Positions 48,001 through 54,000 of a stretch of 64,000 nt of DNA are shown here, piece by piece; the stretch's first letter is position 1, and the number at the start of each line of letters is the position of its first letter. Source of the DNA: Amphiscolops sp. MND2022 (lineage: Eukaryota); contig OZ076418.1 in assembly GCA_964187785.1 (NCBI GenBank), positions 36,394,001-36,458,000 of the forward strand. The letters run 5' to 3'. The position numbers were made by a program.

Positions 48001-51000
48001 TCCAGGTGTACCGACTGCATGCAGACCAAACGAACGGACAAACGATCCATTACACCACCAATGATCGACACTTCCAAACTGGCCCTAGGCCCAGAAGATG
48101 CACTTCAAATGGACATCGTCCCGTTTGATGAGCCTTCCGGTGGCTATAACGCGATTGTCACTGCAATGGACGTCTACTCGCGCTACCTCTTCACCTACAA
48201 TGTCGTCAAAACGGACGCCCCCACAGTAGCCCGAGTTTTGGTCGACATCATGACCCGTCACGCCTACCTCCCTACTACAGTCATCACCGACAAGGGCACT
48301 CAGTTTATGTCTGAGGTAATGGCAGACGCGACGAGAACCCTGGGCATACAACTCCGTCATGCTACCACTAAACATGCCCAAACCATCGGAATTTTAGAAA
48401 GAAGCCACGCCTCTCTGAAAGAATCGCTGAAAATCTCGACAGGAGAGCGCCGGACGATGTGGCATCAATACGTAGCCATCGCCACGCTGAATTACAACAC
48501 ATCGTACCACTCCGCCTTAGGGTGTGAACCCAGCCGAGTGTTCCACGGGAGGATCCCATATAACGTGTTGGACCTCAAATTTGGCATACGAAACCAACGA
48601 CCTACAACTACGACGACGAACATGGGAGAAGACATTCTACACAAAACACAGCAAATCAAAGAGGCGGTGAACAAAAACTTAATGCAGTCATACGTGCGAT
48701 ACAAACAGTATTACGACAAAAAAGCAAACGCCCACCCCCTCAATGTCAACGAATACTGTTACGCCTTACACCCAAAAGCGAATACCCAGGGAACCAAACT
48801 CCCATTCAAAGAATACCTCTGGACAGGGCCCTATATTATTGTCAAAGTGCTCCCCAACAACAATTACCTAATACGGAAACTACAGACAAACTATACACAA
48901 ATCCTACACAGGATTCGCTTGAAACCATGCCCTACCGACAAATCGCTCCCAGACAAACCTGTCTTGCCCAAAGATTACACCCCAGACAAGGAAGTAGACG
49001 TCTTCCACGACGACCTATATGCGCAGGCATGGCAGTCCAATTTCGATGAGTACACCTCAACGACACCCCCATTTCAAACAGAACCCACAATAACAATTCC
49101 AGAGTCACACGACGATCTACCTACCCAAACGGACAACCCAACGAATGACCCAGGAGATTTTCCCCTGGAACCTAACCCAAACGAACACCCAGGAAATGCC
49201 ACGCTAAACGCCGATCCTGATGCCACTGAAAATGATACCCCAACCCCGAATTCTCCCCGAAAAAACAAATACAACTTAAGGGCAAACCCTCCATCAAATT
49301 GGAAGAAGGATTATGCTTATTATAATCCGATAGATGCTGAACCCAACGCGACAGACTAAAACTCCCAACTAACTGGAAGGATCATCGTCTCATTTACCCT
49401 ATTACAAACTACTTAATCACCCCTACGACTCAACCTAAACTCACGAGAAAACAAATTCGAAGGGCAAAGAAATAAATTCAAGAACTCCCTGTACTGTTTT
49501 ACTTGCCGGGTTTGTTAACAAACCCCCTTTTTTTCCACAAAGTGGCGATTCAATTTTCAGACAATTTTGTCTGTGTTTGCTTACTATGGTAAATCGACAT
49601 ACTGATGGACCTTTCGGACCAATAACAACAGAAATACAACATATAGCAGTACAAATACAACTAAATCTAAAGTTTGATCCAATTTTGCTACAATGTGTTT
49701 CATCGCCCGGATCCACGTTTCACTGACCCACTAGAACTGCCTTTACCAGACGACGACCCAGACACACCACTTTGCCGAAGATCTTTCTTCATCTTGACGA
49801 TCTCCGCAATACTGCCAGAACCACCCGCCTGCTTGACCGTTTTGCCGACAGACTTCACTGAAGGGGGAGTATTAACGGCGGAAGAAGTCCCAACATTCTC
49901 CTCAACAACAGATGCAGCATGCGAGAATTACAACTCGAGTAACAATTTATCAGGAGACGCGGTCGCGGCATACAAGCCCAATCCAGCTCGTCGACGCCAT
50001 TCCGATACTTGATCCAGATAGTATGCATCGAAAGCATCTCGCAATCTTCGATACATATCACAGCGGGTATGAGCATACAACGGCCTCCACGGTGCAAACG
50101 AAGCGTCCTCCATGAAACCCTTCCCGTTCGGCAAATTGGTTTTCAGTTCTTCTAGACAGTCCCTGGTCAACAACTCTCCGGAGGCAAACTTCCTGAATGT
50201 CACATATGACTGACAAGCAAATATCGAAGACAGCAGGATCTTTTTCGGCACCAAAGCTCCACTCAAGGACATATCCACGACAGGATAATTGACACACCGC
50301 GGAACCATCGCCATTGCAGCAATTTGTACCACCTTATCCAAATTCAGCCGACAGTCTAGAAGTCCGGAATCCCGCAAGAATACAAAACTGTCCTTGATCG
50401 ACGACACAACACGCCGATTCCGACGCCGTAACTCCACAAGTAGAGATTTGAACTCATTACCGGCCGCCTCACAATCCAACGACGCCAACCGCCCACAGTC
50501 AAGAAAACAAGTCGTCAAATCTTTGAACAATTGAACTGCGTAAGATTCATCGCCCAACAACATCATATCAGGCGCAAAGCAGCTCAGATTTGAGGACAGG
50601 ACAGACTTCGCATATGCCGACTGATTTAACACCTTCAAGAATTCCGAAAGAAACCCATGGCACTCACGGAGGAAAGGCCGCCGAACAGTATCTCCACAAG
50701 CTGATAAGGCCACGGTCACAAGGGGCTCACCACGAAGACACTCGACGAAAGGAATATTAGCCCACGTAGTCAAGGGACGACCGATGTACTGGCTCCAAGC
50801 CTCGATCTCAGGCAGACTACTCAACTTCTTGACTTTGCCCAGCAAACTCCAATAAAAATAGCAGAAATCGGAATAATTACGACAGGTGTAGTCAGTCACT
50901 GATTCATCAAACTGCTTCACAAAGTTGGCCTCGAAGCACGCAACAAGAACATGCAAGACACTCAATCGGGGCAACACTAGGGTATCCGACACAATGAGCT

Positions 51001-54000
51001 GACCAACGTCAAGAGGAGCCTTGCCCTTTGAAGGAAGAACAGTCCCCGTCTCTTTCAAGAATAGTGTCACATCGGCCCAATGATGTATCAACTCTGAGAT
51101 AGCAGCACGCAAAGAAGGAAACGGCACCTGGCGCTGGCTTATACACACACGAAAAGTCGGCAGAGACTCTAACCAAGGCTGGTGGACGGCTCTGACCAAG
51201 CGCAATAGCAAATAGTCCAAAATAGCAAATGGATCCAACAAGTTTGCACCAACCAAGCCAGCTTCACGAATATGCTCTCTAAAGACATCAGGGGTATACT
51301 CCAGCACAGGCAGTGGCACCGGTCGACCTTCGTTCTTGCACCACGAAGAAAACACATTGAACAGCGTCGAAGGACAGCCCCGGACAGCAACTGGAGACTG
51401 ATCAATTGGGAGAATCGCGAGGACGCGGGTCAAGCACTTGATCTCTGCATCGCACAGCCCAGGAGAGACTTCTTCCCACAGCACACAAACCTCGCGGACG
51501 ACATCGCTAGCAAAGAAGTGGACATAACACTGCACCCCACTATCGTCACGCCGGAAAGAAATACTGAAGTCAGACAGCTTACAACCAGATTGCACCCGAC
51601 GCAAAATTCGGGGATACAATGTCTGACACAAAATAACAAATGACTCAGTTTTACTCCAGGTGGCTTGGGCATAGCTGGTCTCCACGGGGATGGTCGTCCT
51701 GAACTGACTCCACAAACGTCTAAGGAAGCTGTGGGACCCGCCACTCCGCAACAATTCAAACAAACCCCCAACCAAGGTTGAGCAAGGCACATTGGAAACT
51801 ACGCCCACAAGAGCGTCCACCTCATCCTCCTCGAACGCATTCTTTGGTCGAAGAACAACAGGGGGCGTCAGCTCAATTTCAGCACGCAACTCTGGTGATA
51901 TGGTGGCAACAGCAATCTCATCAAACTTCTCTGTGTAGATGAAATCTTCATGGTCAAGCCGATATCGGCGGTCCTTTGCGAAATGGGTTTTGCGACCGAA
52001 ATGCCTCCAGATTTCCAGCTCCCCACGCGACAGAAACGAAACATCTTTACGGCAAATCGCACAATTGAACCCGTTTGGGTTCTTATCAGTCCTTCGGCTA
52101 ACAAAGAGCCGAGGAATCGCATGTGTAGCCATCTCTCTGCGAAGAACATGACGCTCGCTTTGCCGTTTTTTCCTTCTCTCGTACTTCGCAAACAATTTGC
52201 TCTTGGTCTCCTCCTCAGCGTTCAAATGCCCACGGACTCGATGCAGTTGGATCCCTTTTTGCTTGAGCAGGCGCATGATTTCGTCCAGACCTACAAACAG
52301 AAATACAAACACTCATAACCAAGTCACCCCGAAACCTACTATCCCGCCCCTCTCCAATCAACTATCACTGAATCAAGAAATACACGGAGTATAAAGATGA
52401 TAACTACTGATACTGGAAATGAGCCATAAGAGTGCAATACTAACGGCGCGACAATGAACGATCCTCCACACGACTCTGGGTCCGCTCCAATCGAACAGCT
52501 GCCTGGCCGAAAGCCAAAACCTGTGATGCCGACATACACACAGCACCTTCTGGCACATCCTTCAACCCAGCTAAAAAGAAGATCATGGGTGAACACAGTT
52601 CAGACAGACTGCATACGGCAAAAAAAAACAAAAACGAAAGACAGACCAAAATAACAACCACTAATAACCCAACAACAAAACTATAATCACCTTTAGCCCA
52701 TTCATTGTGGATCACAGAGCGCTCCAGGCCTTCGGCAAGACGAGAATGCTGGGTCCGCCCCCGCTTAGGCTGATCACTACACCCAAGCTCCTCGCTGGAA
52801 GCAAAGCCCCCCGTCACTGGCAAAACACCTTCAGAGTCCGTCGAATGAACCCCCGCAGACGTATGCATCCCAAAAGGTGAGGAAACGACTATAATCAAAA
52901 ATATACAAAGTATGGACAAATGACATGTGATAACAAAGGAGAAGATTTACCCACCACTAGTCTCTACATTAGGTGCAGCTGACGCAGTAGCAGTTTTCCT
53001 GGCAGGTGTCCCAGAACAGGACCAACGACCACGCTTCACGGGACTGCCTTCAACGAAGGACACTTCGCGACGGACACGTTCCACAGTAGCTGGCACGCGA
53101 ACAGAAGACCCAGGAACATAATCCTCATCATGAGAATCGTCAGACAAGCCTAAAACACAGACAAGGTGGATGAAACGACGCGTCTGTATACTAGCATGAA
53201 AAGTTAGCTGGCCACTAACAATTCGCTAAGGAACTCACCCTTTAAATCATGCAAATAGTCCAATTCATGGCGGGCGTCACTAGATGCTGAATGCACAGAA
53301 TTTCCTCCATCATCATCATCATCATCGTCACCGGTATCGCCGCGGGGAACACCAACTTCACTCAGACTAGACCCAGATTTATCAGAGTCGCTGTCATCAT
53401 CTTTTTCTCCAAATCCACGCCCACCACAAGACACCGGAACTTCCAACTCAACAGGAGAATCTCCAGTGACAGCCTCATCAGTTGTCTCAGCAATAATCAA
53501 TTGCGATTCCTCCCCATTCCCTTCATCCAGACCACTCGCGACTTCTCCTCCTCCTAACACTGCTTCACCCTCGCTCTCCATAACTCCAATCTTTCCTGCC
53601 TGTAACAGTCGTTGATCATCTTCGTCAGTCGAATTTGACATCGTTCGCAAGCAAATCAATCTAAAAATGTCAACACAATAATACCAATACGAAGACGTGG
53701 CGTAAAACCAACGAGATTACTACTATACAATATTATTAGTATGACGTAATGGAAGTCATTCAGTCTGCCAGCTGAAAACTTTCCCATTCATGCAAGCGGC
53801 GTGAACAAAAGAAAAGAACGGAATTAACATTCAATTACTCGACCATTCCGCAGAACAGCCGCTCAGCATTACTTACAAGTATTACTATTTATTGCATACA
53901 ATTTATTTACTCATCGGATCAAATGAATTCATCGACACTCAATTCCTCAACCGATTATTTCATTTTGGACCGCGACCAAGACGCTGCCCCAGTAAACCCC

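Follow-up and report, generated by a model that had tools for sequence, protein, structure and literature searches.

How can a gene with four introns persist inside a retrotransposon, an element that is copied through its genomic RNA? The question is raised by a 64,000-nucleotide (nt) stretch of the genome of Amphiscolops sp. MND2022 (GenBank assembly GCA_964187785.1, contig OZ076418.1, positions 36,394,001 to 36,458,000 of the forward strand; hereafter the window), in which a long terminal repeat (LTR) retrotransposon carries a series of open reading frames (ORFs) on the strand opposite to gag-pol, between the end of the pol frame (49359) and the start of the 3′ LTR (54467). The original prediction, made from the sequence alone, read these ORFs as an intron-containing antisense gene of probable hAT-transposase origin, domesticated by a Gypsy lineage as an accessory factor. 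We find that the interval 49700–53641 on the minus strand is a real five-exon gene carried within a Ty3/Gypsy-type element. The reading that we favour, with a probability of about 0.6, is that this gene encodes a disabled transposase of hAT fold which would serve the element as a DNA-binding accessory factor.

The gene comprises about 1,170 codons, and its exons and introns are listed in Table 1. The predicted arrangement of four GT-AG introns of 89, 66, 120, and 154 nt, all in phase 1, is reproduced by splice arithmetic. Exons 1–4 are free of stop codons and, since no upstream exon ends in T, none of the split codons can be a stop. T-rich tracts precede the AG at all four acceptors; among the donors, the first is the near-consensus GTGAGT, while donors 2–4 are weaker. 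The GC content lies between 0.30 and 0.44 in the introns, as compared to 0.48–0.57 in the exons. A second GT is found 4 nt downstream of donor 2, and its use would produce a 62-nt intron followed by an early stop in exon 3; because this alternative breaks the frame, the 66-nt intron is the only frame-preserving choice. The four upstream ORF pieces had been described as stop-free and either acidic or of low complexity, in agreement with their composition: exon 1 consists of 28% Asp and Glu and has a net charge of −29, and exons 2–4 contain 22–34% Ser, Gly, and Thr. Exons 2, 3, and 4 are symmetric (195, 198, and 126 nt), so that skipping any one of them preserves the frame; the same holds for the retention of intron 3, whose 120 nt are open in frame. 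An in-frame ATG is present in exon 3.

Upstream of the first ATG, the 0.8 kb that separate exon 1 from the 3′ LTR (53642–54466, minus strand) are A/T-rich near 53890–53910, where two TATA-like runs containing AATAAA are found, and an acceptor-like TTTTTAG precedes the ATG by about 20 nt on the minus strand. An untranslated leader exon upstream of the ATG, possibly located in the LTR, is conceivable.

Shuffled sequences yield GT-AG chains cheaply, so that the sequence by itself is insufficient to support a splice model. The control consisted in searching 100 dinucleotide shuffles for the longest chain from an ATG to an acceptor with up to four introns. None of the 100 reached a chain from ATG to last acceptor of at least 900 nt (median 535, maximum 817), as compared to 922 nt in the model and to the 1069 nt that the real sequence permits. 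In addition, the upstream exons were scored with a codon model trained on exon 5. Exons 1–4 obtained 0.150, 0.164, 0.153, and 0.269 per codon, with positive values only in the frame of the model; the four introns and both flanks did not exceed 0.04 per codon in any frame.

The splice model was then searched exon by exon. Exon 3, intron 3, and exon 4 form a single open frame of 159 amino acids (aa) in the window copy, and this frame, searched intact, matched 11 proteins at an expect value (E) ≤0.01 among 137 candidates. In six divergent relatives with 40–50% overall identity, 15–23 of the 28 residues encoded by the 3′ part of exon 3 are identical, whereas the read-through of intron 3 retains only 4–11 identical residues of 33–39. 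For instance, P0191 shares 20/28 residues with the 3′ part of exon 3, 5/33 with intron 3, and 33/43 with exon 4; the corresponding values for P0192 are 15/28, 11/38, and 28/43. Exon 4 of P0193 is identical at 28/43 positions, and P0194 to P0197 share 22–23/28 residues in exon 3 and 4–8 of 33–39 in intron 3. In P0195 and P0197, exon 4 is carried in another frame, meaning that the length of the intron 3 interval differs by a non-multiple of three. Overall, conservation stops exactly at donor 3, restarts at acceptor 3, and stops again at donor 4; furthermore, the ORFs of the exon-5 relatives aligned below are unconserved just upstream of the position of the exon-5 acceptor. This pattern of conserved exons and unconserved introns backs the antisense intron-containing gene, and introns 3 and 4 are established as far as protein data allow. 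Introns 1 and 2, for which the argument comes from codon usage, splice-site features, and the shuffle control, are less secure.

The last exon had been presented as an ORF of 794 aa. The ORF is present but does not represent the whole exon, as the same frame runs beyond one stop to 49702–49700. A relative, P0001 (858 aa), can be aligned along its entire length with the window, ungapped and in a single frame, at 98% identity; compared to it, the last exon has one in-frame stop and no frameshift. The tail beyond this stop is open for 75 residues, 44% of which are Ser, Gly, or Thr, and has a net charge of +7. A C-terminal tail rich in Ser and in Lys/Arg is found in nearly all the longer relatives, including a distant group of proteins of approximately 400 aa.

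With the open part of exon 5 (786 aa) as query, 37 relatives were identified at E ≤1e-3 among 7,999 scored candidates. They are 445–890 aa long, display 45–98% identity, belong to clusters of 1–104 members, and are all without a name and without a Pfam domain. None of them is long enough for the spliced five-exon model; they look like plain ORF calls. Alignment A1 was built with the window and the 23 of these 37 relatives having a query coverage of at least 80% (24 rows). Across all the rows carrying a residue, 116 of the 786 columns are unchanged, and the best conserved parts are the zinc finger and the hAT N-terminal helices (0.69–0.82 identity per 40-residue bin). Intact, near full-length ORFs persist in lineages that are only 44–51% identical to the window. 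A profile search over 1.84 billion representatives returned 833 of them at E ≤1e-3, 351 at E ≤1e-10, and 110 at E ≤1e-30, mostly fragments. The group of about 400 aa mentioned above (P0101–P0169) shows 18–24% identity, aligns to the C-terminal half only, from about residue 440, and bears the basic Ser-rich tail; these proteins may represent either a deeper branch in which one more intron is present, or a short form in its own right. Taken with the 833 representatives, this group indicates that the family is wider than the 37 close relatives. The 64 pattern matches obtained in a bacterial and archaeal genome collection included no relative.

The expectation of a hAT or RNase H-like fold was checked with Foldseek, and Hermes-like matches were obtained in two libraries and with two family members. 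An AlphaFold2 model of the exon-5 protein of the window, built on an alignment of 127 family sequences (A4), had a mean predicted local distance difference test (pLDDT) of 89.9 and a predicted template modelling score (pTM) of 0.76. In the PDB, this model has ten matches at E ≤1e-3, each of them a chain of Hermes (E 9.0e-06 to 6.5e-04, probability 1.00, 539–698 aligned columns), with a target-normalised template modelling (TM) score of 0.43–0.59 and a sequence identity of 9–12%; the next match has an E of 0.022 and a probability of 0.12. In BFVD, a single match passed E ≤1e-3 (E 4.1e-05), a Pandoravirus japonicus protein named [quoted passage not shown]. The model of P0010, a relative with 51% identity (pLDDT 84.2, pTM 0.72), behaves likewise, the ten best PDB matches being all Hermes (E 5.8e-04 to 1.2e-02, two at E ≤1e-3) and the next one having an E of 0.098. 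The language-model neighbours proposed by the Atlas, whose scores are leads rather than tests by the tool's own statistics, carry the families Dimer_Tnp_hAT, DUF4371, FAM200-ZBED5 RNase-like, and GTF2IRD2-like (0.90–0.94 for the window, 0.84–0.89 for P0010); as leads of the same kind, PF05699 is carried by 76% and 95% of the members of Atlas neighbours. Direct comparison by hmmscan gave no match to PF05699 (hAT dimerisation), PF27073, PF27046, or PF14291 in the window protein or in 21 relatives. On the evidence of the structure models, the product of the last exon folds like a DNA transposase of the hAT type (Hermes-like).

The modelled protein carries near its N-terminus a hairpin and helices (residues 73–113) bearing the zinc ligands C76, C79, H96, and H102, which are kept in 23/23, 22/23, 22/23, and 23/23 rows, respectively. 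The CCHH motif of the original prediction is therefore present, although its spacing is C-x2-C-x16-H-x5-H instead of the x14 first given for the central interval. No Pfam match to zf-BED was found, and the PDB sequence matches of this region are weak C2H2 fingers (E 1.4–2.5). Helices at residues 169–238 lead to an RNase H-like core with the order β1-β2-β3-α1-β4-α2 (strands 241–247, 251–260, and 263–273, helix 280–291, strand 301–303, helix 307–319), which is followed by a long all-α stretch and by the closing C-terminal helices (Table 1). The predicted FSISFRRDD segment is found at residues 241–249, its first seven residues forming strand 1.

In DDE enzymes of the RNase H fold, strand 1 bears the first catalytic Asp, and the second directly follows strand 4. 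Strand 1 of the family (241–246) is acidic in 0/24 rows. The two Asp that follow FSISFRR are acidic in 9/24 and 4/24 rows and are not conserved, and positions 304–308, after strand 4, are acidic in at most 4/24 rows. The suspected loss of the catalytic residues is thus borne out at the two canonical Asp places, as mapped by RNase H topology. The lack of a conserved acid at both places points to a disabled transposase, which would have been kept for DNA binding and self-association and not for cutting; judging from the model, the protein is very probably no longer a transposase.

Does the gene belong to the element that carries it? Neither terminal inverted repeats (TIRs) nor an 8-bp duplication flank the gene: the best inverted pair is 19 nt long with 79% complementarity, and one of its arms lies inside exon 1. 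A nested DNA transposon was consequently rejected as the present state of the locus, which leaves room for an ancient origin of this type. The gene region also shares the strand bias of its carrier, with an AT skew of +0.19 to +0.24 and a GC skew of −0.15 to −0.25, as compared to +0.30 and −0.26 in gag-pol and about 0 in the host flanks. In view of the intact ORFs down to 44% identity, the conservation of exons but not of introns, the absence of TIRs, and the shared strand bias, it is plausible that a Gypsy lineage keeps this hAT-derived protein as an accessory factor, its putative function.

The persistence of the introns would then be explained as follows. The antisense gene would be transcribed from its own promoter, situated in the A/T-rich 0.8-kb interval preceding exon 1 or, alternatively, within the 3′ LTR, and its introns would be spliced only from the antisense mRNA. 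Genomic RNA would hold the same introns reverse-complemented and invisible to the spliceosome, so that they would be copied into every new insertion; because splicing is strand-specific, the introns would survive reverse transcription. Strand-specific splicing is the principle on which intron-based retrotransposition indicators work. The protein would consist of an acidic N-terminal region, a short conserved linker (exons 3–4), the hAT-like body, and the basic Ser-rich tail, and it would return to the nucleus and bind DNA as an accessory factor of the element. Most likely, its role would be to regulate the transcription or the chromatin state of the element itself; the next most likely role would be to guide integration. 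A stronger form of this proposal is tentative, and we lean against it: an LTR retrotransposon lineage would depend on a captured dead hAT transposase as a sequence-specific DNA-binding factor that activates the LTR or steers integration, with introns preserved only because they are antisense and with three symmetric 1-1 exons allowing isoforms.

A number of results weigh against the favoured reading. Owing to the premature stop, the window copy cannot make the basic tail. The fold matches have a query-normalised TM of 0.30–0.39 and a root-mean-square deviation of 7.8–20 Å, modest values that are expected for a multi-domain protein with extra segments. Pfam gave 0 families at E ≤1 for the exon-5 protein of the window and 0/21 relatives above the cut-off, and PDB sequence and profile searches, including those with the zinc-finger region alone, returned nothing better than E 0.11. 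The catalytic Asp places were mapped by secondary-structure topology, a mapping that covers the two Asp of the DDE triad. The four junctions, like the promoter and the poly(A) site, are predicted features, and no AATAAA or ATTAAA occurs on the minus strand within the 11-kb internal region 42903–53887, as compared to 9 on the plus strand; this gap is not significant, since 51 of 500 simulations also contained none and 2.4 signals are expected on such an A-poor strand. The link of the gene family to Gypsy elements across the lineage is one that we infer. Finally, the ORF of exon 1 matched 3 proteins only (83–100% identity, among 59 candidates), and exon 2 had no match among the 200 proteins collected, the sole set with which it was compared; exons 1 and 2 could be young or wrongly modelled.

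The latter point is the basis of a shorter-gene model, in which only exons 3–5, or exon 5 alone, are coding, while exons 1 and 2 are chance frames or an untranslated leader. Such a gene would be consistent with the in-frame ATG of exon 3, with an exon 1 found in close relatives only, and with an exon 2 never matched in a relative, and the median chain of 535 nt in the shuffles indicates how easily GT-AG chains arise. However, we hold this alternative to be unlikely, as the coding scores of exons 1 and 2 are positive only in the frame of the model and lie well above those of introns and flanks. Furthermore, donor 1 is near-consensus, the acceptors of introns 1 and 2 both follow T-rich tracts, and phase 1 is common to all four introns.

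Another possibility is that the gene is a passenger: a hAT transposon, or an intron-bearing transposase gene, would have landed in the 3′ part of a Gypsy element and been copied along without function, its ORF remaining intact only in young copies. The near full-length open frames in lineages 44–51% identical to the window are difficult to reconcile with this explanation, as is the conservation of the exons next to an unconserved intron. The zinc ligands and 116 columns stay constant, whereas the catalytic places are free to vary; no TIRs remain, and the strand bias equals that of gag-pol. These observations make a functionless passenger improbable, even if the transposase fold is what it would leave behind, the introns argue for capture as DNA rather than mRNA, fragments make up most of the 833 representatives, and the window copy already carries one stop.

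The protein could also be directed at the host, for instance with an acidic N-terminus that binds silencing or chromatin factors of the host and lets the element escape repression. The acidic exon 1 and the conservation of exons 3–4 outside the hAT body would suit such a factor, and the plant reviews, in the passages available, also consider regulatory roles for antisense ORFs. We nevertheless give it a low probability because conservation is highest in the zinc finger and the hAT N-terminal helices, which favours DNA binding; otherwise, nothing in the data separates a host-directed factor from the accessory DNA-binding protein that we prefer. Least credible of all is a protein that is still an enzyme, performing a nuclease or strand-transfer reaction in a DNA-level step for the element by means of acids at non-canonical places: the full hAT architecture is retained, several acidic columns are conserved in at least 90% of rows (e.g., E215, E272, E399, D406, D466, E521, and E612), and the catalytic mapping covers two of the three places, but in 24 rows neither strand 1 nor the places that follow strand 4 show a conserved acid, there are no TIRs to act as a transposase substrate, and the element has its own integrase.

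Table 1. Positions, in window coordinates, of the antisense gene, of the domains of its modelled exon-5 protein, and of the carrier element.
Feature	Position	Strand	Details
Antisense five-exon gene	49700–53641	−	ATG at 53641; stop codon 49702–49700
Exon 1	53239–53641	−	134 codons + 1 nt; acidic
Intron 1	53150–53238	−	89 nt; aagg|GTGAGT ... TTTTAG|; phase 1
Exon 2	52955–53149	−	195 nt; phase 1 to 1
Intron 2	52889–52954	−	66 nt; agtg|GTGGGT ... TTATAG|; phase 1
Exon 3	52691–52888	−	198 nt; phase 1 to 1
Intron 3	52571–52690	−	120 nt; aaag|GTGATT ... TTTTAG|; phase 1; open in frame in this copy
Exon 4	52445–52570	−	126 nt; phase 1 to 1
Intron 4	52291–52444	−	154 nt; cgcc|GTTAGT ... TTGTAG|; phase 1
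Exon 5	49700–52290	−	hAT-like body and Ser-rich basic C-terminal tail; one in-frame stop
CCHH zinc finger	51983–52063	−	C76, C79, H96, H102 of the exon-5 protein; β-hairpin and helix in the model
RNase H-like core, first part	51332–51568	−	From the model
All-α stretch	50309–51292	−	Residues 333–660; position of the hAT insertion domain; from the model
C-terminal helices	49988–50245	−	Residues 682–767; closing the fold; from the model
Complete LTR retrotransposon	40844–56525	+	15,682 bp; LTR pair and read ends
Target-site duplication	40839–40843 and 56526–56530		CTATC, 5 bp; both outer sides of the element
5′ LTR	40844–42902	+	TG..CA
gag ORF	42560–43954	+	464 aa; DUF1759 E 7.1e-07; weak zf-CCHC, Retrotrans_gag, Ty3_capsid
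Protease-RT-RNase H-integrase frame (RT, reverse transcriptase)	44035–49359	+	One in-frame stop between the protease and RT parts
3′ LTR	54467–56525	+	TG..CA

The carrier of this putative accessory gene is a complete, young, recently inserted element of Ty3/Gypsy type. The position of the gene inside an LTR retrotransposon, as originally proposed, follows from the LTR pair, the CTATC duplication, and the Gypsy-type pol domains. In the BLAST comparison the LTRs form a direct repeat of 2,060 nt (40843–42902 versus 54466–56525) with 99.854% identity, i.e., 3 differences. A tract resembling a primer-binding site and beginning with TGG is found at 42903, directly 3′ of the 5′ LTR, and a purine-rich run resembling a polypurine tract (54455–54465) lies directly 5′ of the 3′ LTR; neither tRNA genes nor RNA families were found within the window. 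The Pfam matches of the pol frame (gag-asp_proteas 9.1e-06, RVT_1 1.9e-23, RT_RNaseH 2.5e-13, Integrase_H2C2 5e-10, and rve 3.7e-12) have the order protease, RT, RNase H, integrase, with families of Gypsy type. The single stop in this frame may reflect programmed read-through or frameshifting, or damage. The gag ORF, whose frame differs from that of pol, starts 343 nt inside the 5′ LTR (42560–42902); as a consequence, the 3′ LTR repeats this start in a 161-aa ORF (56183–56668) that leaves the element. Together with an Atlas neighbour from arthropods, the DUF1759 match of gag hints weakly at an animal host. On the plus strand, a Ser/Pro-rich ORF of 211 aa (53923–54558) spans the junction of the pol-to-LTR spacer with the 3′ LTR; it has no Pfam match and is probably not a gene.

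The window contains no N, and no tandem repeats were found inside the element. Outside it, a tandem array is located 2.4 kb upstream (38002–38407; 171-nt unit, 2.4 copies, 95% matches). Further upstream, a single ORF of 2,411 aa on the plus strand (15943–23178) has matches to Helitron_like_N (7.4e-08), PIF1 helicase (3.1e-09), and, at its C-terminus, GIY-YIG (3.1e-06), and is a Helitron-type Rep/helicase with an added GIY-YIG domain. The two adjoining ORFs, of 263 aa (14638–15429) and 428 aa (24162–25448), have no Pfam match.

Antisense accessory ORFs are known mainly from plants, and passages of two reviews call their origin and function unknown (PMC7264820, PMC11963269). The window gene has a nameable origin, a hAT DNA transposase; its structural model is confident, its domain boundaries are clear, and its exon-intron structure is conserved. 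It offers a natural example of introns that pass through retrotransposition owing to their antisense orientation relative to the genomic RNA, and of a transposase that would have been domesticated by another mobile element and not by the host. If this is true, one class of mobile elements domesticates the enzyme of another class for its own replication. For annotators, the case is a reason to examine long pol-to-LTR regions for spliced genes on the minus strand, which may escape notice because plain ORF calling recovers the last exon only, as in 37/37 relatives. In the openly licensed literature, Repbase-type catalogues lying outside the scope, we found no report of an LTR retrotransposon with an antisense gene of hAT-like or BED-finger type and none of animal elements with intron-bearing antisense ORFs. 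Within the reach of these searches, the antisense accessory ORF as such is already known, while the hAT origin and the conserved introns are new.

The nearest counterparts by position are the antisense ORFs of plant elements of the Tat lineage (Grande, RIRE2, and Retand), which likewise occupy the opposite strand of the interval from pol to the 3′ LTR. According to passages of PMC7264820, PMC11963269, and PMC4408406, gene23 of Grande encodes a nuclear protein and has its own upstream promoter, the plant ORFs (“aORF-3R”) are conserved within families, and a regulatory accessory role has been proposed for them. The same passages attribute to these ORFs Transposase_28, plant mobile, or SMC-like domains, or no known domain. 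In the available text of the 2020 review (PMC7264820), antisense ORFs are said to lack clear resemblance to other proteins, and “intron” does not appear as a word (0 occurrences); the annelid paper PMC8220671, in the part consulted, only restates the plant ORFs as background. The window gene differs from the plant ORFs by its hAT transposase fold and its four introns, and the Pfam search at E ≤1 detected neither Transposase_28 nor the plant mobile domain in the exon-5 protein.

Passages of PMC7264820, PMC11963269, and PMC4408406 also compare the plant ORFs with the antisense genes of human T-cell leukaemia viruses (HTLV), and those of the first two describe deltaretrovirus antisense genes as transcribed from an antisense promoter of the 3′ LTR and as encoding a nuclear protein with a regulatory role. 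As far as these passages go, HBZ of HTLV-1 and APH-2 of HTLV-2 are, like the window gene, accessory genes opposite to gag-pol at the 3′ end. HBZ, which belongs to an infectious retrovirus, is a bZIP protein of small size, whereas the product of the window gene, derived from a DNA transposase, is encoded by a much longer frame in a retrotransposon without env. The HBZ mRNA is spliced.

With Hermes and the other hAT transposases, the window protein shares the fold, a zinc finger at the N-terminus, and an RNase H-like core split by an all-α domain. It differs from Hermes in its sequence, with 8–12% identity and no Pfam hAT match, and in having no conserved acid at the two Asp places; unlike hAT transposons, the gene has neither TIRs nor an 8-bp duplication and moves as cargo of a retroelement. 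ZBED5, FAM200, GTF2IRD2, EPM2AIP1, and C17orf113 derive from hAT transposases, are catalytically dead, and carry a zinc finger near the N-terminus, and domesticated hAT genes of this type are, as leads, the nearest named Atlas neighbours of the window protein. Those, however, are genes of the host, whereas the window gene is multicopy and resides inside a mobile element.

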